A stretch of DNA of 64,000 bases, taken from positions 1 through 64,000 of IMG/VR virus record IMGVR_UViG_3300033463_000070; one strand, given 5' to 3'. The stretch comes from a virus. Its lineage: Duplodnaviria > Caudoviricetes. Below, in pieces: positions 4,474 to 42,018 of this stretch (position 1 is the stretch's first letter; every line of letters begins with the position of its first letter). The notes below the pieces were generated by a model. The model ran no database searches and had not been told where the DNA came from. It worked only from the letters and a program-made list of their open reading frames with translations. Made by a program: the position numbers and the translations under genes.

Positions 4474-5151
4474 ATGAGATTCAGTAAAGAAGAAATGAAT
4501 AAAGCAAGTAAAACAATTAGAGCTTATTTGAAAAAGAATAATAAGTATCCTGCTAGTGTTACAATGACCGAAATGGATACTAAAAAAAGCAAGAAATTAA
4601 GTAAGAAACAATATATGGGATTATTTGAAGCAGAAAACGTTTTTAGAATAAAAAAAGGAAGACAACCAAACTATGTTACATTAGTCGGAACAGCTTCAAA
4701 CCCACTTGTAATTGATTACCAAGACTGGTCAATGTCTTGCTGCCCTACTTCCTTAAGTATGTGTAGTCAAATGTTATTTAACTACAAATCAGAAGCACAA
4801 TGCAGAACAGCACTTGGTACAGACAAAAAAGCAGGAACCAGTCCAAGTCAATTAGTATCCGGAGCAAAAAAATTAGGATTTAAAGTAACACCGGTAAAAA
4901 GAACAGCAGCGAACATTAAAGCAGCTTTAGCAAAAAAGAAACCATTAATTATCCATTTAGAAACTAAACCAGCAACATGTTTAGGTTATGCTAAAAATTA
5001 TGGACACTATGTATGTGGATATGCATTAACCAAAGATGGTAAAATTAAAATCGCAGACCCAACTAAAGGTTTAAAAACTTGCTCTATTAGTACAATAGTT
5101 AAAGCAACAAATGGAAGAGATTTAAAATTTTATATAGTTGAATTGGCTTAA
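4474..5151 (+). CDS. Pseudomurein endoisopeptidase, PeiR-like (pseudomurein-binding repeat region + C39-like peptidase)
   Basis: Basic N-terminal PMBR-like segments (KKNNKYPASVTM, KKGRQPNYVTL); papain-fold motifs QDWSMSCCP (Gln, Cys), NYGHY (His) and IADP (Asp). Confidence 0.8.
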   Translation: MRFSKEEMNKASKTIRAYLKKNNKYPASVTMTEMDTKKSKKLSKKQYMGLFEAENVFRIKKGRQPNYVTLVGTASNPLVIDYQDWSMSCCPTSLSMCSQMLFNYKSEAQCRTALGTDKKAGTSPSQLVSGAKKLGFKVTPVKRTAANIKAALAKKKPLIIHLETKPATCLGYAKNYGHYVCGYALTKDGKIKIADPTKGLKTCSISTIVKATNGRDLKFYIVELA

Positions 5152-5155
5152 GAAA

Positions 5156-7126
5156 ATGACTAGAATAGAAACTGAAGTATACAAGCAAGCAGCTGATGAT
5201 TTAATTGGTCTTCGGGTTGTCGTAATAGATAATCAAGAAAGACCAATAAATAATATTATTGTTGTTCAGCCAGAAGATTTAATTAGAATAGAAAATAATT
5301 TAGTTAATCACAATCATGATGAAAGATATGTCAGTATTGAATCAGTTAGTACACGTATTCGTGAAATAGCTGAAGAATTATTTGCAACTGTTGCTAGACA
5401 AGAATATCGTCCACCAACTTTTTATGTTGAAGATGATGGTGATTTTTATGTTGAATATCATGAAGGTGAATTAGTAGTTCATGATGTTATCAATATTGAA
5501 TTAGACAGTAGACATATCACTACTTATAATGGTAATTTTACTATTACAGGTTTGGTAACAAATAATGATGAACCATTATTAAATCGTGATGTATTGCTTT
5601 ATAATTTAAATGATACTTCAGAACATTATTTCGCCAAAACAGATTTACATGGAATAATAACATTCAATTTGTCATTAAATGTGCCAATTAAAAATTATAG
5701 AGTATCAACTTCGGGAACTTTTACGGATGTAGAAATTGTTTATACAAAATATGATATAGAAAATGAAGTAGGTACAATAGCAAATGAGCAAGGAGAAGCT
5801 ACCATATCAGCTGTATTGAAAAATTGGAATAATACAGTTGAAGGTGAAACAATTGAATTGTTATTGAATGATACAGTTATTGATAGTGATACTACTGATG
5901 AAAATGGTGAAGTGAGTTTTGATGTTATTGTTGATGAAACTACATGGTATAAATTAAAATTTACGAAACCAAATAATGAAGAAATTAAGAAAGATTTTGG
6001 AATACAATATCATGCACAAAAAACTTATCATTTTAAATTGGATGGAACAGAATCATATCGTAATATTAATTCTAATGCATTACGGTTTATTGAAGAAGAT
6101 GGCGAAAATGTAATGACAGGATATACTGGATATATTGATGAAATTTCATGGTCAAATAATTATCTGTGGACTTTTGAATGTGATGTAAAAATATCAGGAA
6201 AGGGTTCAGGCATATGGCTTGTGCAAAATGGAGATACAAGTCGTGATAAATTTGATATATATATAGCACAAACAGATAATAATGGTTGTTGTCAAATAAT
6301 ATGTCATCATGGTGGTGGCAGGGTTTTTGCTGTAAATCTTGTTGATGAAAATTCAGAATATATATTATTTAATGAATATAAACATGTTGTTTTTAGAAAA
6401 ACAAGTTATGATACAATTGAAGTAGAAATAGATGGGTATATTGCATTTACACGACAAAGTGTATATCTTGAAGCGATTGCTAACCATTGTCTTGGTATTA
6501 CATATTGGACTGATAATCATGTTACATACATTAAAAATGCTACAATTACTTATTATCCTTTGATAAATCCAGTTTTAAAAAATACATATCATCCACTATT
6601 AGATGGAACAGAGCAATTAACAAGCATATGGACTTGTACTCCAGTTATACATGATAATCAATTAGATAATTTTTGGGATTTTTGTAGCGGTTATCTTACT
6701 GAAGGTTGGTTAAATACTGATTATTGGAAACTAGAATTTGAAATAATTAGAAATACTGATAGCGATAAAGGTTGTGGTTGTCAAATAACAAAAAAAGGAA
6801 TTACATCAAAAGATAGTAATAGATTATTTATTGGAAGCCAAGGAACTTTTACAGTTCATGGAGTCAACGGTAGAGAGCTTGAAGATGGTGCTTATAATTC
6901 ATGCGCTTATAATAGTTTGACTGAGTGGACTAAAATAACTGTAGAAAAAGTAGGACCACGAGCAGTATTAATAACAACAAAAACACCTACATGTGAACAA
7001 ACAAGAAGATTACCTTGGCCATCAATGCCTCAATACGAATATCTTACAATTGGTCCGTATTGCTGGGCTAAATCAGGTTGTAGAATGCGAAACATTTATG
7101 CATATACTTCACTCGAAAACATTTAA
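5156..7126 (+). CDS. Fibre/adhesin protein: MTRIET N-terminal module, Ig-like domains, two lectin-like beta-sandwich modules
   Basis: ATG at 5156 follows the previous stop (the listed 5138 start is an upstream TTG). Modules GYIDEISWSNNYLWTFEC and GYLTEGWLNTDYWKLEFE resemble those of the first ORF. Confidence 0.6.
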   Translation: MTRIETEVYKQAADDLIGLRVVVIDNQERPINNIIVVQPEDLIRIENNLVNHNHDERYVSIESVSTRIREIAEELFATVARQEYRPPTFYVEDDGDFYVEYHEGELVVHDVINIELDSRHITTYNGNFTITGLVTNNDEPLLNRDVLLYNLNDTSEHYFAKTDLHGIITFNLSLNVPIKNYRVSTSGTFTDVEIVYTKYDIENEVGTIANEQGEATISAVLKNWNNTVEGETIELLLNDTVIDSDTTDENGEVSFDVIVDETTWYKLKFTKPNNEEIKKDFGIQYHAQKTYHFKLDGTESYRNINSNALRFIEEDGENVMTGYTGYIDEISWSNNYLWTFECDVKISGKGSGIWLVQNGDTSRDKFDIYIAQTDNNGCCQIICHHGGGRVFAVNLVDENSEYILFNEYKHVVFRKTSYDTIEVEIDGYIAFTRQSVYLEAIANHCLGITYWTDNHVTYIKNATITYYPLINPVLKNTYHPLLDGTEQLTSIWTCTPVIHDNQLDNFWDFCSGYLTEGWLNTDYWKLEFEIIRNTDSDKGCGCQITKKGITSKDSNRLFIGSQGTFTVHGVNGRELEDGAYNSCAYNSLTEWTKITVEKVGPRAVLITTKTPTCEQTRRLPWPSMPQYEYLTIGPYCWAKSGCRMRNIYAYTSLENI

Positions 7127-7457: not shown

Positions 7458-8249
7458 ATGACAGCAACATTATTAGGAAATATTAAAGGCCCAAAAGGTG
7501 ATGACGGAAATGGAATAGCAAGTATAACACAATTCTCCACTTCCACAAATAACAGTACAGGTGTAACAACCACCACATATCAAATCACATATACAGAAGC
7601 AGGTAAATCACCAGCTTATTTTGAAGTATTATCAGGAGCAACAGGAGCTCAAGGTATACAAGGTCCAAAAGGAGACGATGGAGAAGGATTCTCAATCGCA
7701 CAAACATACGCAAGCGTATCAGCAATGAATGCAGACGCAGAAAACGTAGACGAAGGACAATTCGTATTAATAGCTTCAGCACAAGGAGCAGAAGATGAAG
7801 ATAACGCAAAACTCTATGTAAAAGGAGAATCAAGTTTTACATTCCTAACTGACCTATCAGGTGCACAAGGTATTCAAGGTGTAGGAGTATCAACTATCAC
7901 AGCCGGAACAACCTCCGGAACAGCAGGAAACGGACAAACAAGAACCTACAACGTCAATTTAACAAACAATACAGTAGGTGGACAAATAACTGTACAAGAT
8001 GGAGTTAAAGGAGATACAGGAAACGGAATATCAGCAATAACGGGACCAGTATCTAACGGATTAGTAGATACATACACTATAACTTACACAAATGGTGGCT
8101 CAGACACATTCACAGTAACTAATGGAGCAACCGGACAAACAGGAGCCACAGGACAAACAGGACAAACAGGACCACAAGGATTAACCCCACAATTAACATT
8201 AGACGAAAACGGAAACTTATACGTCGAATATGTACAAAGTATAAGCTAG
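7458..8249 (+). CDS. Collagen-like (Gly-X-Y) fibre protein
   Basis: GPKGDDG, GATGAQGIQGPKGDDG and GATGQTGATGQTGQTGPQG; a FSIAQTYASVSAMNA...EDEDNAKLYVK...FLTDLSGAQG module of the kind found in phage collagen fibres; C-terminal PQLTLDENGNLYVEY. Confidence 0.8.
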   Translation: MTATLLGNIKGPKGDDGNGIASITQFSTSTNNSTGVTTTTYQITYTEAGKSPAYFEVLSGATGAQGIQGPKGDDGEGFSIAQTYASVSAMNADAENVDEGQFVLIASAQGAEDEDNAKLYVKGESSFTFLTDLSGAQGIQGVGVSTITAGTTSGTAGNGQTRTYNVNLTNNTVGGQITVQDGVKGDTGNGISAITGPVSNGLVDTYTITYTNGGSDTFTVTNGATGQTGATGQTGQTGPQGLTPQLTLDENGNLYVEYVQSIS

Positions 8250-8691: not shown

Positions 8692-9624
8692 ATGACAGTA
8701 TATTTGTTTACAAAAATGAAAGAAAAAATGCAAGAATACTTTTATCCTAAAGAAGAAACTTATTCTAAAAGCGAAACATATTCTCAAACACAAGCTGATA
8801 ATAAATTTGCATCATATAATCATACTCATGATAAATATTCTCATCCTACAAGTGGAGTTCAAGCGAATACTACTCCAAGTTTAAAAAAAATTGCATATGA
8901 TGATATGGGTCATATTACAGATGTAGATGATATAAATATTAATGAATTAACTATTACAGATGCAGATGTTAATTTAGATAATTATTGTACAAAAGAATAT
9001 ATAGAAAATAATTTTATAACAAAACAAGATATAAATAATGAATTAAATTTTTATAAAAATATATTAAAAATAAATTGTGATTTTAATGATATTATTATTT
9101 TAGATGTTGGTCCACAAGGATATAATATTCCTGATATAGATAAAGGCAAAATTATTGCAAAATATTACGATGAAGATGAATATGTATATGTAAAAGAAGA
9201 TAATACATTATATTATGTAGAAAACCATGATGATTATGGGAATGGAGAATCAAAAATCTTAAATCCTTTTAGTAATGAAAACAATTTTAACAAATTAAAT
9301 AAAGTAGCTCATATAGTTATGGACCCTTATTTAACACAAGATATTAGTAATGATGGAAAAACAATATCTGGATATTTAAAAAGTTATTTGGGATTTGTAT
9401 TACCACATAGAACTCTTTATGTTACAATTATAAATACACATGGTGGAGAAGATTCTCAAGTAAAAAATAAAGCTATCACAACAAATAACGAAGGAAAATA
9501 TGAGTATACATACAATGACCCTGACCAACATCCACAAACTTTTAATAATGTTCATTATTATGAGATTCGATTTGATGGGGATATTGTATATAATCCAACA
9601 ATAATAACAAAACAGGAAGATTAA
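8692..9624 (+). CDS. Fibre-associated protein (KEKMQEYFY module, HTH-D knot, C-terminal Ig-like domain)
   Basis: SD GGGTGA; MKEKMQEYFYPKEETYSKSETYSQTQADNKFASYNHTHD; C-terminal TTNNEGKY...FDGDIVYNP. Confidence 0.55.
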   Translation: MTVYLFTKMKEKMQEYFYPKEETYSKSETYSQTQADNKFASYNHTHDKYSHPTSGVQANTTPSLKKIAYDDMGHITDVDDININELTITDADVNLDNYCTKEYIENNFITKQDINNELNFYKNILKINCDFNDIIILDVGPQGYNIPDIDKGKIIAKYYDEDEYVYVKEDNTLYYVENHDDYGNGESKILNPFSNENNFNKLNKVAHIVMDPYLTQDISNDGKTISGYLKSYLGFVLPHRTLYVTIINTHGGEDSQVKNKAITTNNEGKYEYTYNDPDQHPQTFNNVHYYEIRFDGDIVYNPTIITKQED

Positions 9625-9625
9625 A

Positions 9626-10465
9626 ATGTGCACATCACTACATTACCAAAACTGCATGGGCAGAAACTTTGATTACGAAATTTCTTACAAAGAAGCTTGC
9701 AGAATTCATGACAAAGAAAAATACAAAATTATCGGTATGGTCACCGATATCATACAAGAATATCCACTCTATTACGATGCAATGAATGAATGCGGTTTAT
9801 GTATAGCCGGATTAAACTTTGAAGGCAATGCATACTACAACAAATACAAAAAAGAAAATAAAAACAATATCGCACCATGGGAACTGCCAGTCAAAGTTTT
9901 AGGTAACTGTAGAAATGTTATGGAAGCCAAACAATATCTTGAAGATGTTTGGATTTATGATAAGAATTTTAATGAACAAATGCCTAATTCCTCGCTTCAT
10001 TGGATGATATGTGATAAAAATTTTTGTATCACAGTTGAACCAATGAAAGATGGGCTTAAAATATATAATAATGAAGTTGGTGTTTTAACCAACAATCCTC
10101 CTTTCCCGGCTCAATTAAAAGCATACAGAAGAAGTAAAAAAATCGAATCTTTATATAAAAAACTCTATAAGAAATTACTCAAAAAAGAATATTCAACTCG
10201 GGGAACTGAAACACTTGGCGTGGCAGGCGACTTAACCAGTATGAGCAGGTTTGAAAGAGCCTGTTATTACAAAGACAAAATGATATCAAAAGGCAAGCAA
10301 GCAAGCGAGACATTTCATCTTCTTGATTTGGTGAAGCAACCGTATGGGGCTACACCAGTTGGGGATAAATTTGAATATACTATTTATGAAGTTGTTTATG
10401 ATATGAAGGAAGGAAGCATGCAAGTAAAAAATTATGATAATGAGGTTTATGAGAGGAGGTTGTAG
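9626..10465 (+). CDS. bsh: Choloylglycine hydrolase family Ntn-hydrolase (bile salt hydrolase / penicillin V acylase-like)
   Basis: N-terminal nucleophile Cys2 (MCT), GRNFDY, YPLYYDAMNECGL, GLNF, VGVLTNNPPF, SRFER and KFEYTIY are all CBAH hallmarks. Confidence 0.9.
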   Translation: MCTSLHYQNCMGRNFDYEISYKEACRIHDKEKYKIIGMVTDIIQEYPLYYDAMNECGLCIAGLNFEGNAYYNKYKKENKNNIAPWELPVKVLGNCRNVMEAKQYLEDVWIYDKNFNEQMPNSSLHWMICDKNFCITVEPMKDGLKIYNNEVGVLTNNPPFPAQLKAYRRSKKIESLYKKLYKKLLKKEYSTRGTETLGVAGDLTSMSRFERACYYKDKMISKGKQASETFHLLDLVKQPYGATPVGDKFEYTIYEVVYDMKEGSMQVKNYDNEVYERRL

Positions 10466-11878
10466 ATGGCTCCAACATTATTAGGGAATATTAAAACATT
10501 TATTAATCAATGCTTGCCAGATTATATAATTAATTCATGGTCAAATACAGCGCAAACAGGGAAAGCTCCATCTGAAAATTTAGTGAAAACAGCATTAAAT
10601 AATAAATCAGATGTAGGACATACACATAATTATGCATCCATTAGTGATATAGATGTAGAAATAGAAGCCTATCTTGATGCCATTATAGACGCTCTCGAAG
10701 AAGCCGAAATAATTGGTGGAATTGGAGGAAATAGTATCAATATATCAACACAATGGAGCACTCCTTTAAGTGATAGCAAAGTTCCTTCAGAAAAATTAGT
10801 AAAAGAATTATTAGATACCAAAGCAAATAGCTCATCAATACCAACAAAAACTTCAGATTTAACAAATGACAGTGGATTTTTAACAAGCCATCAAGATATA
10901 AGTGGCAAAGCAGATAAAACAGGATACAATGCAAATAAAAATTTAGTAACAAATAATGATGGTACAATAACTACCGAAAATAAACCAACTATTCCGACAA
11001 AAACCTCAGATTTAACAAACGATAGCGGATTTTTGACAAGTCATCAAGATATAAGTGGCAAATTAAATATTTCTCAAACAAGTTACAAAGGAAAAAATGT
11101 TGTAGTTGATAGTAGTAGTGGAAATATTACTTTTGAAAATAAACCAACTATTCCGACAAAAACTTCAGATTTAACAAATGACAGTGGATATGTAACTTCA
11201 AGTGGTAGTACTGTATCATATTCGCAAACTCAATCATCAGGAACCAATACATATACTATTGGTAAGATTACAATTAATGGAACAGAAACAACATTATATG
11301 GAAAAGATACAAATACTACTTACACAATTCCAAGTGCGTCAACATCAACACCAGCAAAAGATACAGCAAGTGGAACATATGGTAGTGGAACCGCTTATGC
11401 AAGAGCTAATCATGCGCATCCAAAAAGTAGTATATATGCCGAAGCAGAACATAAACATGATACAGGAGATATTAATGGATTGATAAACCTAATTTATCCA
11501 GTTGGTTCTATATACATGAGTGTAATTAGTACTAGTCCAGCTACATTGTTTGGTGGTACTTGGGTACAATTAAAAGATAGATTTTTATTAGGCGCAGGAG
11601 ATACATATAGTAATGGTGGAACTGGTGGGGCAGCAACACATACCTTAACAACAAATGAGATGCCATCACATACACATAATGCTTGGACAAAAGCTTTAGA
11701 TGGCTGGGCTATATGGGGTCAAAAAAATGGAAACATGTTTACTTCATCATCATACACTTGGGAAGGAAGTAATGTTAATGTATCTGATATAAATTCACTT
11801 ACAAATACTGGTAGTGGAGCTGCTCACAATAACATGCCTCCTTATTTAGTTGTTTATATGTGGAAACGAACAGAGTGA
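10466..11878 (+). CDS. Tail fibre with repeats and C-terminal baseplate/collar (gp10-C-like) domain
   Basis: SD GGAGG; three IPTKTSDLTNDSG repeats; C-terminal YPVGSIYMS...LFGGTW...RFLLGAG...GGAATHTLTTNEMPSHTH...HNNMPPYLVVYMWKRT. Confidence 0.8.
   Translation: MAPTLLGNIKTFINQCLPDYIINSWSNTAQTGKAPSENLVKTALNNKSDVGHTHNYASISDIDVEIEAYLDAIIDALEEAEIIGGIGGNSINISTQWSTPLSDSKVPSEKLVKELLDTKANSSSIPTKTSDLTNDSGFLTSHQDISGKADKTGYNANKNLVTNNDGTITTENKPTIPTKTSDLTNDSGFLTSHQDISGKLNISQTSYKGKNVVVDSSSGNITFENKPTIPTKTSDLTNDSGYVTSSGSTVSYSQTQSSGTNTYTIGKITINGTETTLYGKDTNTTYTIPSASTSTPAKDTASGTYGSGTAYARANHAHPKSSIYAEAEHKHDTGDINGLINLIYPVGSIYMSVISTSPATLFGGTWVQLKDRFLLGAGDTYSNGGTGGAATHTLTTNEMPSHTHNAWTKALDGWAIWGQKNGNMFTSSSYTWEGSNVNVSDINSLTNTGSGAAHNNMPPYLVVYMWKRTE
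10838..11190 (+). repeat. Three coding repeats IPTKTSDLTNDSG(FLTSHQDISGK)
   Basis: Copies start at 10838, 10991 and 11150. The first two are ~72-bp near-identical copies with synonymous differences; the third is partial. Confidence 0.9.
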
Positions 11879-11882
11879 TTAA

Positions 11883-13151
11883 ATGACAAAATATACAGAT
11901 AAAGCAACAGAATTTGTACAAACTTTAATAGGAGCTCATGATAGCGAAGAAAGTGATATAACTATTTCAACATCATGGGGAAGTCCTTTAAGTGATGAAA
12001 AAGTTGTATCCGAAAAATTAATAAAAGACACAATTGATACAAAAGCAAACAGTAGTGGATATACTGCGAGTCAAAATTTGGTAACAAATAGCAGTGGGGA
12101 TATCGCTACAGAAAGTAAGCCAATAATACCTCAACCTTCAACCACAGCAACAGATATCAAAATGAATGGAACTCAAAGCGCTGGAGGTTTAAATACTACT
12201 ACATATGCTAAAGCAGACCATGTACATCCAAGTGATACAAATAAACAAGATTTACTTGTTAGTGGAACTAATATTCAAACAATTAACGGACAATCAATAT
12301 TAAGAAGTGGAGATTTATCAATAGGAACAGAGGTTGGAACATTTAGTGATTTAAATGAATTAATAAATCTTTCAACATTAAACAGATATACACTTGTTTT
12401 AGATAAAGATTATAAATATGACTCAACTACTGATTCATCTTTAAGTAGTGGAATTGAAATAACACAAGATATTATTATCATTGGAAATGGACACATAATT
12501 GATGGAAATAACTATGCAAGAGCATTTATAGATACAATTGGTTATACTTGGGAATTAAATGATTTAAAAATACAAAATTGTACAAGTAATAATGATAATA
12601 AATATGGTTATAATGTTGGTGGAGCAATCTATGCAGACCAATATACCCATGTTAACATAAACAACACAACATTCACACAAAACAACGCAGAGGATGGTGG
12701 AGCAATCTTCGCAGATAACTCACAGATAAACATAAACAATACAAACATAAACAACAACAACGCAAACAATGGTCAAGGTGGAGCAATCTGCACATGGAAC
12801 TCACAGATAAACATAAACAATACAAACATAACCCACAACAACGCAACAAATAATGGTGGAGCAATCTTCGCATACGATAACTCACAGATAAACATAACAC
12901 AATCAATAATAAAAAATAATACTGCAACAAATTATGCAAATATTTATTGTAATTCTGCTACAACAGTATATAATTGTGATATTGATAATATTGTTACTAC
13001 TTGTTATAATGTAACAAATTATAATTATATTAATGAAACTAATATTGCTAATAATTTAACAACAACCACAAGTGGAAAAGTATTAGATGCACGACAAGGT
13101 AAAGCATTGGCAGATTTAATAGGTGATGCGATAACATATATAAATCAATGA
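11883..13151 (+). CDS. Fibre/adhesin hybrid: fibre modules plus methanogen adhesin-like beta-helix (GGAI/FxxN) repeats
   Basis: Shares WGSPLSDEKVVSEKLIK and YAKADHVHP modules with the previous ORF; GTFSDLNELIN...LVLDKDY adhesin start motif; four GGAI repeats. Confidence 0.75.
   Translation: MTKYTDKATEFVQTLIGAHDSEESDITISTSWGSPLSDEKVVSEKLIKDTIDTKANSSGYTASQNLVTNSSGDIATESKPIIPQPSTTATDIKMNGTQSAGGLNTTTYAKADHVHPSDTNKQDLLVSGTNIQTINGQSILRSGDLSIGTEVGTFSDLNELINLSTLNRYTLVLDKDYKYDSTTDSSLSSGIEITQDIIIIGNGHIIDGNNYARAFIDTIGYTWELNDLKIQNCTSNNDNKYGYNVGGAIYADQYTHVNINNTTFTQNNAEDGGAIFADNSQININNTNINNNNANNGQGGAICTWNSQININNTNITHNNATNNGGAIFAYDNSQINITQSIIKNNTATNYANIYCNSATTVYNCDIDNIVTTCYNVTNYNYINETNIANNLTTTTSGKVLDARQGKALADLIGDAITYINQ
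12696..12900 (+). repeat. Three ~78-81 bp tandem GGAI-repeat units, AAC/ACA-rich
   Basis: ggtggagcaatc starts at 12696, 12777 and 12855; aactcacagataaacataa recurs in each unit. Confidence 0.9.
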
Positions 13152-13161
13152 GGTAAAATAA

Positions 13162-14349
13162 ATGACAGATGGAACATTCGCAGAATTACAAACATTAATT
13201 AATAATGCAAGTAATGGAGATACTATTACACTTGATAAAAATTATAAAAATAGTGGTTCAGAAACATATATAACAATTAATAAAGATATAACTATTGATG
13301 GAGATGGTTACACCATAGATGCCGATTTAAAGAGTAGAATTTTTTATATAAATGGTGCATATACATTTACAATCCAAAATCTTACATTAACTCAAGGAAA
13401 TTCAGGTTCAAATGATGGTGGTGCTATTTATGTAAATAATTCAAATGCAAATTTAAATATTGATGATTGTATTTTCACAAACAATACTGCTACAAATAAT
13501 GGAGGAGCAATATATATCGGAAATGGTACTGCTACAATAAATGCAGATTTTACTACAAATACAATATCTTCAAGTGGTGATGGTCATAAAGGTGGAGCAA
13601 TTTACATTAATGCGGGTAATGTGACAATTAATGGAAATTTCACAAATAATTCAGGTGCTCGTGCGGGAGCAATCTATACTAATGGTACTACTCAAATATT
13701 AGGTATATTTGAAAATAATAGTGCTACTTATAGAGCGGGTGGAGCAATTTTCGTTGATATAAATAGTAACACAACAATATCTGGAGAGTTTACTAATAAT
13801 TCAACAACAAATAGTAGTGCTCAAGGTGGAGCAATTTATAATTATGGAGGACATCTTACAATATTAGAGAATACTATTTTTATTAATAATGTAGCAGGAC
13901 AACATGGTGGAGCAATCTCTGCAAATACAAATGGAAGTACTGCACCTACGACAACAATATTTGCAAGTACATTTACTACAAATGAAGCGAACAATAATGG
14001 TGGAGCAATTTATAATACTGGAACTTTACAAGTAAGAAATAATATTTTTGATGGAAATGAAGCACAAAATGGTGGAGCAATTTATAATTCAAATCAAAAA
14101 GCAATTATTGGAAATTGTATTTTTACAAATAATACTGCTACAAATCAAGGAGCAATATATAATGGAAAATGTTATCTATGTGTTTTTTCAACACTTTCAG
14201 ATACTTCAAATGCAAGTGTTATTACATTAAATAGTTCACTAGAAACATTGGCACAATTAATAACAACAAATCTTACAATTATGGGAGTAAATGCTTCAGC
14301 AAGCGATGGTTTAGATACATTAGCAGATAAAATACTTAACATATCATGA
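13162..14349 (+). CDS. Adhesin-like protein with polymorphic-membrane-protein (GGAI/FxxN) beta-helix repeats
   Basis: Starts MTDGTFAELQTLINNASNGDTITLDKNY; about ten (G)GAI motifs, each preceded by F(T)xN. Confidence 0.85.
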   Translation: MTDGTFAELQTLINNASNGDTITLDKNYKNSGSETYITINKDITIDGDGYTIDADLKSRIFYINGAYTFTIQNLTLTQGNSGSNDGGAIYVNNSNANLNIDDCIFTNNTATNNGGAIYIGNGTATINADFTTNTISSSGDGHKGGAIYINAGNVTINGNFTNNSGARAGAIYTNGTTQILGIFENNSATYRAGGAIFVDINSNTTISGEFTNNSTTNSSAQGGAIYNYGGHLTILENTIFINNVAGQHGGAISANTNGSTAPTTTIFASTFTTNEANNNGGAIYNTGTLQVRNNIFDGNEAQNGGAIYNSNQKAIIGNCIFTNNTATNQGAIYNGKCYLCVFSTLSDTSNASVITLNSSLETLAQLITTNLTIMGVNASASDGLDTLADKILNIS

Positions 14350-39605: not shown

Positions 39606-40190
39606 ATGGAAAAAATAATACGTGAAGAAATACACGATATTGCTGACAAAATATATGAGTTACAACAAAAATCAGAAAAACTTACTAATGGTCAGCGATA
39701 TGCAGCTATCAATGAGATAGAAAAAAATATTACTCCACTCCGTATTGACCTTCGTAAATTAGAGCGTGAGTTATACGACCAAAATAATAATAAACGAGAA
39801 ATCATTAAACAAATTGATACAATAGGGAAACAAATAACAGAGCTTGAAGAAATAAAAAGTGATTTAACTGCTCGTATTAATACAGAAAGTGAACATACTA
39901 GACAGGAACTTAATGATAAAATTATTAACTATATGAAAGAAGAGCTCACTCCTCTAAAAAACGCAACATTAGACAATCAAAAAGAAATCGCCGAAATAAA
40001 AAAAAGCATTTATGAATTAAAACTTGATATAACAGAACGAGAAAAAAATAGGGACGTTGAAGAAGCGAAAAAATTCGACCGCTTCAAATGGATAATTACT
40101 GGAGTAGTTGCTGCCTTAGCAGCAATCTCCTCATTATCATTATGGCTTGAACCAAGTATTAGAATATTGGTTCGAATATTGACTAGTTAA
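39606..40190 (+). CDS. Coiled-coil protein with C-terminal transmembrane helix (XhlA/holin-like lysis protein)
   Basis: Long heptad region then RFKWIITGVVAALAAISSLSLWL; last gene of the late block. Confidence 0.5.
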   Translation: MEKIIREEIHDIADKIYELQQKSEKLTNGQRYAAINEIEKNITPLRIDLRKLERELYDQNNNKREIIKQIDTIGKQITELEEIKSDLTARINTESEHTRQELNDKIINYMKEELTPLKNATLDNQKEIAEIKKSIYELKLDITEREKNRDVEEAKKFDRFKWIITGVVAALAAISSLSLWLEPSIRILVRILTS

Positions 40191-40387
40191 TATTTGAGTG
40201 CTAACTCAATATCTTCTTCTTTGACGGTTTTTCTGCCTGCGTGTTTTGCGAAACCGTTTGCTCTTAATGCTACATCTGCAGCCCAGTCTTCAGCACTTGC
40301 TACTAATCTTGTAACTGCTTTATCACTACTTCTTATTGCTCCTACTGATTTTATAATTTTTTTTCCGCTTGCTTTTGGTATAACCAT
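40187..40387 (-). CDS. Archaeal histone (HMf/HMt family)
   Basis: Gap-free alignment to HMfB with P4, I11-I12-K13, G16-A17, R19, S21-D22 and HAGRKTVKEEDIELA; SD GGAGG. Confidence 0.92.
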   Translation of the reverse strand: MVIPKASGKKIIKSVGAIRSSDKAVTRLVASAEDWAADVALRANGFAKHAGRKTVKEEDIELALKY

Positions 40388-41478: not shown

Positions 41479-42018
41479 TTAATAATTTTTTACTCTAACT
41501 TGAAAATAAGATTGTGGATGGTCACAAACGGGACATACTTTAGGAGCTTCTTCTCCTTCATATATGTGTCCACAATTTAAGCATTGCCATTTTACTTCCT
41601 CATCACGTGCAAAAACTACATCATATTTTATATTATTTAATAATGTTTGATATCTTTTTTCATGTGCTTTTTCGATTTTAGCTACTTCTGCAAACAAGAA
41701 AGCAATATGTTCAAACCCTTCTTCTTCTGCTTCTTTTGCAAAATTTTTATACATTTCAACCCATTCATAATGTTCTCCAGCGATACCATCTTTTAAATTT
41801 TCAACTGTGTCTGGCATACCATCATGTAGGAGTTTAAACCAAATTTTTGCATGTTCTTTTTCATTATTAGCTGTTTCTGTAAAGAAATTAGCTATTTGTA
41901 CATATCCATCTTTTTTGGCTTGGCTAGCATAATAATCATATTTAGTTCTTGCCTGCGTCTCACCAGCAAATGCAGTTAATAAATTTGCTTCAGTTTTTGT
42001 TCCTTTTAAATCTTTCAT
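41479..42018 (-). CDS. rbr: Rubrerythrin
   Basis: [21 protein letters not shown]; di-iron ligands NEKEH, GEHYE, EKAH; rubredoxin knuckles CLNCGH and CPVCDHP. Confidence 0.95.

Follow-up and report, generated by a model that had tools for sequence, protein, structure and literature searches.

A compact bile salt hydrolase-family amidase encoded by a probable methanogen virus and its relatives

Bile salt hydrolases (BSHs) govern the opening step of bile-acid metabolism in the gut and have been treated as a purely cellular trait. In mammal-associated Methanobrevibacter, BSH is regarded as a trait of gut adaptation (PMC8727293; PMC13135261). MSTV1, a virus of M. smithii, is reported to be released about twice as much under a bile-acid mixture (PMC11375127), which shows that bile matters to Methanobrevibacter viruses. 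The S-R-X selectivity loop is known to mark glycine-preferring BSHs and extends into the active site of the neighbouring subunit (PMC10066039), while penicillin V acylases (PVAs) carry an aromatic residue (Tyr/Trp/Phe) at the Asn81 position, where the oxyanion-hole contribution is made through the backbone NH (PMC8066178). Here, we describe a virus-encoded member of the choloylglycine hydrolase (CGH) family, a compact BSH-type amidase of 279 residues. Its gene lies at positions 9626-10465 on the plus strand of a 64,000-nucleotide stretch of DNA, denoted as the window, which is the first 64 kb of the 84.7-kb IMG/VR virus record IMGVR_UViG_3300033463_000070 (CheckV completeness 58%).

The open reading frame (ORF) consists of 279 codons and its product starts with Met-Cys. 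The protein matched the Pfam CBAH profile (PF02275) with an E value of 3.2e-54 over residues 2-273 and profile positions 1-296 of 316, and its score of 185.1 bits stands against a gathering threshold of 20.4. The best solved relative was the BSH of Enterococcus faecalis (EfBSH; 4wl3, E 3.6e-55), followed by that of Lactobacillus salivarius (5hke). Score, nucleophile and catalytic residues, and fold all place the protein in the choloylglycine hydrolase family (Pfam PF02275 CBAH; MEROPS C59). Neither a signal peptide nor a propeptide was found in the 279-residue amidase. The gene is tightly packed between its neighbours, in agreement with the translational coupling claimed in an earlier, sequence-only reading of the window: the upstream gene ends with TAA at 9622-9624, a single base lies between, the amidase ATG starts at 9626, and its TAG at 10463-10465 directly abuts the downstream ATG at 10466. 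The features of the gene are as follows.

9614..9619, plus strand: Shine-Dalgarno-like AGGAAG before the amidase ATG (read from the sequence)
9626..10465, plus strand: compact choloylglycine-hydrolase-family (BSH-type) Cys N-terminal-nucleophile amidase, 279 residues (ORF, Pfam, PDB, AlphaFold2/Foldseek, residue conservation)
10451..10459, plus strand: Shine-Dalgarno-like GAGAGGAGG within the 3' end of the amidase gene, serving the next gene (read from the sequence)

To describe the fold, we used an AlphaFold2 model from 80 homologues, which had a mean predicted local distance difference test score of 94.9 and a predicted template modelling (TM) score of 0.92. In a Foldseek comparison with the PDB, the top matches were all BSH or PVA structures (TM 0.82-0.90), the BSH structures among them at TM 0.85-0.90. 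Compared with canonical BSHs, three residues are deleted in the first hairpin, 13-14 after EISYKE and about 28 at the C-terminus, so that the deletion after EISY suspected from the sequence is real. The segment of ~30 residues ahead of the S-R-G loop is swapped for a lysine-rich helix (residues 160-184). In the subclade of the window protein this helix is amphipathic (165-185) with a charge of +7, and the segment is variable or deleted elsewhere among the compact relatives, which, at ~280 residues, have neither the beta-hairpin nor the assembly segment of canonical enzymes nor a C-terminal tail. The elements of the canonical tetramer (assembly motif, C-terminal tail) are thus missing or replaced in the sequence, although Gram-negative enzymes without the motif are still tetrameric (PMC8066178). 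The trimming should alter oligomer contacts, as the sequence-only reading had supposed from the shortness of the protein, and our prediction is a loop-swapped dimer. Natural BSHs that lack the loop region or the assembly motif stay active (PMC10066039, PMC8066178).

The catalytic set is complete. Cys2, Arg13 and Asp16 (GRNFD), Asn64 (GLNF), Asn156/Asn157 (LTNN) and Arg208 (SRF) are all present as had been claimed, and the motifs GRNFDYEISY, EYPLYYDA and KFEYTIY were found in the protein as quoted. Cys2, Arg13, Asp16, Asn156 and Arg208 were invariant in alignments of 26, 80 and 92 sequences, and all 42 sequences of the compact clade described below, which are 41-99% identical, keep Cys2, Arg13, Asp16, Glu18, Asn156, Asn157, [S/T]RG, Arg208 and Glu250. 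When these were compared with 42 canonical BSHs, 56 sites were identically conserved in both groups and 9 were swapped between them, mostly conservatively. Pocket loops 1 and 2 are almost identical to those of EfBSH. Of the two selectivity-loop types of BSHs, S-R-X and G-X-G, the loop T191-R192-G193, present together with Glu18, conforms to S-R-X with a conservative Ser-to-Thr exchange. The R208-E21 salt bridge of S-R-X BSHs has its counterpart in Arg192 and Glu18, and Arg192 and Glu250 align with R207 and E269 of EfBSH, the residues mutated in 6a8q and 6a8t. Position 64, which separates BSHs from PVAs, is Asn in the window protein, that is, in the BSH state. A penicillin V acylase was rejected as a candidate, since Asn64 is not aromatic and the NCBIfam PenVAmd score was 129.5 bits against a cut-off of 600.

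The window protein shares with EfBSH (4wl3) and L. salivarius BSH (5hke, 8blt; EC 3.5.1.24) the N-terminal-nucleophile (Ntn) hydrolase fold, an alpha-beta-beta-alpha arrangement, with TM 0.85-0.90, the Met-Cys start, the counterparts of Cys2, Arg18, Asp21, Asn81/82, Asn175 and Arg228, and an S-R-G-type loop with its Glu, at 41-45% identity. In contrast to these enzymes, it is ~45 residues shorter, has neither the hairpin that follows loop 1 nor the C-terminal tail, has a basic helix in place of the assembly segment, scores under the equivalog cut-off for BSHs and is encoded by a virus. The chromosomal BSHs of Methanobrevibacter (~325 residues) include its nearest cellular relatives in the tree but are only 41-46% identical and have the full-length architecture. 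Chromosomal compact forms such as WP_295722815.1 (280 residues, uncultured Methanobrevibacter) belong to the compact clade with the same deletions and the same invariant residues; however, they are 46-51% identical to the window protein, have Ala at position 64, stand in cellular neighbourhoods and fall, in the tree, within a different subclade, amid viral sequences. The Gram-negative CGHs PaPVA and BtBSH (no assembly motif) and SlCGH1, a dimeric acyl-homoserine lactone (AHL) acylase, illustrate that trimmed tetramerisation elements are compatible with activity and may go along with a change of oligomer state or substrate, but these proteins are distant in sequence, carry Trp or Ser at the Asn81 position, and are bacterial and cellular. 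In the MSTV1-like Methanobrevibacter viruses (Usuviridae), an 'NTN-hydrolase' label, the only near mention for viruses of the same host genus, appears undiscussed in the legend of Fig. 1c of PMC11375127; in the deposited usuvirus vir075 no link of this label to the compact clade was found.

To place the protein within its family, we searched 5.8 billion proteins and obtained 38 clusters of relatives with 253-302 residues (44-99% identity), all ranking above the canonical BSHs of 324 residues (41-44%). A scan of 1.84 billion representative proteins returned 1,701 family members (E<=0.001), with about ten 50%-identity clusters of compact architecture. A rooted maximum-likelihood tree placed the 42 compact sequences in a single clade nested within the BSH radiation (SH-like approximate likelihood ratio test, SH-aLRT, 100). 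The amidase falls in this well-separated compact clade and is not a recent copy from the host. The likeness to gut-methanogen BSH named in the sequence-only reading was confirmed in part: the identity to Methanobrevibacter BSH (41-45%) was no higher than that to BSH of Clostridia or Enterococcus. The sister of the compact clade was L085, a full-length Methanobrevibacter protein (SH-aLRT 89), while the main Methanobrevibacter BSH clade joined Enterococcus and Lactobacillales rather than the compact clade in the free tree. When we ran an approximately unbiased (AU) test on a reduced set of 39 rows, a tree uniting the compact clade with all Methanobrevibacter BSHs was not rejected (p 0.70), and its likelihood was above that of the free quick search. 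It is therefore plausible that the compact clade arose from the BSH of the host lineage. In L085 itself (Methanobrevibacter MAG79, match at 6001-6885), Ala stands in place of the second Asn of TNNP, and the GC content of its locus is only 20.6%.

We found the compact form in no fewer than three types of virus contigs associated with methanogens (homologues in G003, G004, G005, L002, L004 and L006), with near-identical copies in other metagenomes. The gene thus recurs in several virus contigs of methanogens, but none was found in the deposited usuvirus vir075. It lies in an IMG/VR virus record, is flanked on either side by viral tail genes and is found again in related viruses, as a virus-encoded auxiliary gene should; relatives carry it, so it is not a recent neutral insertion from the host absent from them. 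Among nine viral contexts, two place the gene in the tail module, those of the window and of L002/L003, a 151-kb contig in which a 59%-identical amidase is followed by a Gp10_C gene in the same order. The genes neighbouring the L002/L003 copy have diverged from those of the window as much as the amidase itself. In the other seven, the gene lies in accessory regions of small ORFs: L004/L005 (136 kb), L006, L007 (46 kb, 82% complete), L008 (55 kb, 94% complete), L043 within G003, and two further contigs of ~150 kb. G003 is a 152-kb IMG/VR genome rated 100% complete, in which 48 of the 62 window ORFs have syntenic homologues, and the genome size of the window virus is put at roughly 150 kb. The amidase of G003 lies at 109.9-110.7 kb, and the syntenic stretch of the record of the window (~65-82 kb) has no copy; therefore, related viruses carry alleles of different subclades at different sites. 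When positions 65000-82000 of this record (L173) were set against 107-118 kb of G003, almost no genes were common to both, the region being a hypervariable array of small ORFs.

A rubrerythrin gene lies close to the amidase in L007 (5280-5798, two genes upstream), and its product is 45% identical to the rubrerythrin of the window. The pairing of rubrerythrin and amidase suggests a small set of stress-tolerance genes in methanogen viruses. An ADP-ribosylglycohydrolase gene was also seen within a few kb of the amidase in two virus contigs (L004, 2403-3410; L006, 4454-5515), and L004 encodes a histone-fold gene with a C-terminal extension of 130 residues.

On the cellular side, 78 of 201 Methanobacteriaceae genomes have a family member, and four of them have only the compact form of 280-281 residues, in the chromosome. 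This chromosomal form stands amid cellular genes, namely ABC transporter genes in one genome, and CobQ, thiolase and HMG-CoA synthase genes in another. A virus-only compact clade was rejected on the basis of these four genomes. In the tree, the cellular compact copies are nested among viral ones, one of them as sister to the L007 virus with a support of 96, a topology which indicates that the compact gene has been exchanged between Methanobrevibacter and its viruses. In three genomes of the Methanobrevibacter family, a conserved gene of ~200 residues (L145, 8749-9360; L147, 6596-7198; L148, 8648-9220) comes after the chromosomal amidase; its product has an N-terminus that resembles a signal peptide (MMFKKI...), lacks a Pfam match and may be a functional partner.

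Considering that the functional residues are conserved, that there is no signal peptide or propeptide, and that peripheral losses are tolerated in natural BSHs, we read the protein as an active, cytoplasmic, late-expressed BSH-type amidase which acts as a host-fitness (auxiliary) gene. Family, fold, conserved residues, viral context, distribution and gene packing are observed, whereas we infer its activity, substrate, site and role, and we give this reading about an even chance of being right. In the mechanism that we propose, removal of Met1 would expose Cys2 as the nucleophile, with Arg13, Asp16, Asn156 and Arg208 together with the backbone NH of Asn64 as the remaining catalytic groups. Both the pocket loops and the [S/T]-R-G loop, including its Glu, are of the kind found in glycine-preferring BSHs and point to conjugated bile acids as the most likely substrates, which would be hydrolysed and possibly re-amidated. 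The trimmed enzyme would have lost the peripheral elements of oligomerisation. The amidase sits in the late tail-fibre module and is probably co-expressed with it, in line with the late expression claimed earlier; it would be transcribed and translated together with the late fibre genes and would work inside the infected cell, keeping the slow-growing methanogen functional under bile until the virions are finished. The rubrerythrin encoded by the same virus fits this host-fitness pattern.

Several points weigh against this reading. The predicted BSH activity of the compact clade rests on the comparison of sequences and folds. The stem of the clade is long, with 1.41 substitutions per site, which would fit a change of function. 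Ala replaces Asn64 in 26 of the 42 compact members, covering two of the three subclades, while the window subclade keeps Asn. The score under the NCBIfam equivalog bile_salt_hydro (NF038245) was 248.3 bits, below the cut-off of 350, because of the deletions. At NCBI, the cellular compact protein is named 'linear amide C-N hydrolase [uncultured Methanobrevibacter sp.]' and bears no BSH label. The metagenomes of the relatives are presumably rumen samples, in which we take conjugated bile acids to be scarce. The site in the fibre module, as seen in the lineage of the window, is not needed by an intracellular fitness gene. The GC content at third codon positions (GC3) of the amidase gene is 0.318 against a window median of 0.164, which ranks third among 62 ORFs and highest among the long genes (z 2.4); recent allele replacement by recombination is one possible cause of this outlier. 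For the ortholog that L002 carries at this site, GC3 is unremarkable (0.141). Finally, compact CGHs elsewhere have switched substrate, for example the dimeric SlCGH1, an AHL acylase (bioRxiv 10.1101/788646).

The main rival is a shifted substrate, in which the compact clade would be an amidase for another lipid-like N-acyl amide (N-acyl amino acids, AHL-type signals or microbially conjugated bile acids) and would alter signalling or envelope lipids. We consider it possible, with a probability clearly below that of a BSH-type host-fitness gene. The long stem and altered architecture of the clade, the frequent Ala64 and the shortfall in the equivalog score all fit such a shift, as do the compact or dimeric CGHs that act as AHL acylases with Ser at the Asn64 position (bioRxiv 10.1101/788646), and both the relatives and canonical Methanobrevibacter homologues also come from rumen-derived metagenome-assembled genomes (RUG names). 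However, the window subclade retains Asn64, its loops 1 and 2 are nearly those of EfBSH, the Arg of the selectivity loop and its Glu partner are invariant, and the group-specific swaps number only nine, most of them conservative.

A second alternative is an enzyme of the virion or tail, which would sit on the fibre/baseplate complex and cleave an amide of the methanogen envelope at adsorption or entry, or act on bile acids around the particle. The tight packing among genes of the fibre module and the order of amidase and Gp10_C gene kept in the 59%-identical relative are in line with it, and the lysine-rich amphipathic helix in place of the assembly segment could be a docking element. Nevertheless, we regard it as unlikely. 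The seven contexts outside the tail module argue against a general virion role; the tail position proved peculiar to the lineage of the window and L002/L003. No fused relatives were found in a search for longer proteins, which is weak evidence, and neither a PHROG tail family nor fibre-like extensions were found for the protein. With no PHROG match, no fused close relatives and tail linkage in two of the nine contexts, the protein does not qualify as a virion tail enzyme or depolymerase, and the putative docking helix is variable or deleted within the clade. The pocket loops and selectivity-loop residues, being those of genuine BSHs, argue against the repurposed wall amidase that had also been suggested, and a PeiR endolysin already covers wall cleavage. 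A compact BSH recruited to the fibre/baseplate or to the particle, where it would read or remodel a bile-acid signal or cleave an envelope amide at adsorption, is similarly improbable. If true, a particle-borne compact BSH would tie the infection of gut methanogens to the bile cue of the animal host; an archaeal virus would then carry an Ntn amidase in its virions, and the reported bile-acid-stimulated release of Methanobrevibacter viruses would gain a mechanistic link.

The least likely explanation is passenger DNA, a horizontally acquired moron in a recombination-prone fibre region without benefit to the virus, which the outlying GC3, the differing gene position among related viruses and the mosaic fibre region would fit, but the gene is intact with functional residues invariant over 41-99% identity, occurs in at least three virus groups and as near-identical copies in other metagenomes, and keeps its site in a relative whose adjacent genes have diverged equally.

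Family and chemistry of the enzyme are known, while its compact build and the repeated occurrence of this form in methanogen viruses seem not to have been described. The 279-residue amidase had no match in PHROGs, and BFVD returned only remote folds (TM<=0.55, identity<=14%). A tblastn search with the amidase against 50,697 GenBank phage records, usuvirus vir075 included, matched 15 records, all with genes of canonical length, and no methanogen virus. The one of these records that was examined as a possible viral BSH, MT835525.1 (L174, 'UNVERIFIED: Bacteriophage sp.'), was rejected because its BSH gene lies in 19 kb of bacterial chromosome with genes for PcrA/UvrD, a P-type ATPase, aminotransferases and GalT. 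The canonical BSH matches in IMG/VR were likewise discarded as true viral BSHs, since most of them sit at the edges of prophages called in isolate genomes. We found no description of BSH in archaeal viruses in the literature, and a 2026 virome preprint that sought phage-encoded BSH homologues in infant viromes detected none (PMC13692616). A BSH-type gene is a recurrent cargo of viruses whose most likely hosts are Methanobrevibacter, the dominant methanogens of gut and rumen. Should the enzyme act on bile acids, archaeal viruses would have a part in bile tolerance and perhaps also in the bile-acid pool, they would spread a gut-adaptation trait among methanogens, and the compact enzyme would define a minimal BSH core useful for enzymology. 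If the substrate has shifted instead, the clade would represent an unexplored specificity in a medically important family.

The plus-strand half of the window is a late module (endolysin, fibres, Gp10_C, then giant structural genes), and the minus-strand half holds replication genes (NrdD, split DnaE, nucleases) together with the archaeal histone and rubrerythrin genes. The features that bear on the virus and its host are as follows.

4474..5151, plus strand: PeiR-type pseudomurein endolysin (Peptidase_C39; Pfam C39 E 6.7e-11)
7458..8249, plus strand: tail fibre protein (phrog_4440 tail fibre, E 4e-15)
8692..9624, plus strand: upstream neighbour, 310 residues (no Pfam or PHROG match; shares short modules with the fibre genes)
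10466..11878, plus strand: downstream tail/baseplate protein with Gp10_C domain (Pfam PF21939 E 1.6e-23; PHROG tail families)
11883..14349, plus strand: two fibre/adhesin genes (Phage_fiber_rpt; Chlam_PMP repeats and beta-helix; Pfam)
40187..40387, minus strand: archaeal histone-fold gene (Pfam PF00808 E 4.2e-10)
41479..42018, minus strand: rubrerythrin, host-type stress-tolerance gene (Pfam PF02915 E 9e-25)

The amidase had been placed between two fibre genes. This holds for the Gp10_C tail protein downstream and for the fibre gene at 7458-8249, but not for the gene immediately upstream (8692..9624), which has no family match; it is weakly similar to an L002 gene and has nucleotide matches to Methanobacteriaceae genomes at 8.95-9.11 kb. 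Over its full length, the endolysin shares 54.6% identity with a protein annotated as 'endolysin PeiR' in Methanobrevibacter gottschalkii virus vir075, the sole match among the 50,697 phage records, and the best phage match of DnaE was Methanobacterium virus PhiF1. The PeiR gene heads the fibre module in the window and lies at the genome end in vir075.

Of the 201 Methanobacteriaceae genomes, 158 were matched by a 20-kb DNA query, often in the PeiR and fibre/adhesin genes. With 201 genomes from a low-GC bacterial family as the control, this query gave 19 matches at E<=1e-8, of which 18 fell inside the amidase gene and none in the fibre/adhesin genes at 11883..14349. The nucleotide similarity of the amidase gene was therefore rejected as evidence on the host, because its conserved stretch is matched just as well in the control family, and only the fibre and PeiR regions are specific to Methanobacteriaceae. 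No exact matches resembling CRISPR spacers were among the listed matches in Methanobacteriaceae genomes. Since PeiR and the fibre-module matches are specific to this family, the host is a pseudomurein-walled methanogen, most likely Methanobrevibacter, and the archaeal histone points the same way; all three agree with the methanogen host that had been claimed. The stretches common to many Methanobacteriaceae genomes and not to the control family, at 12400-14200, 7600-7900 and 8950-9110, are 40-270 nucleotides long with 65-93% identity, and by their similarity the fibre/adhesin stretches suggest that modules have been exchanged with adhesin-like proteins of the host or with resident proviruses.

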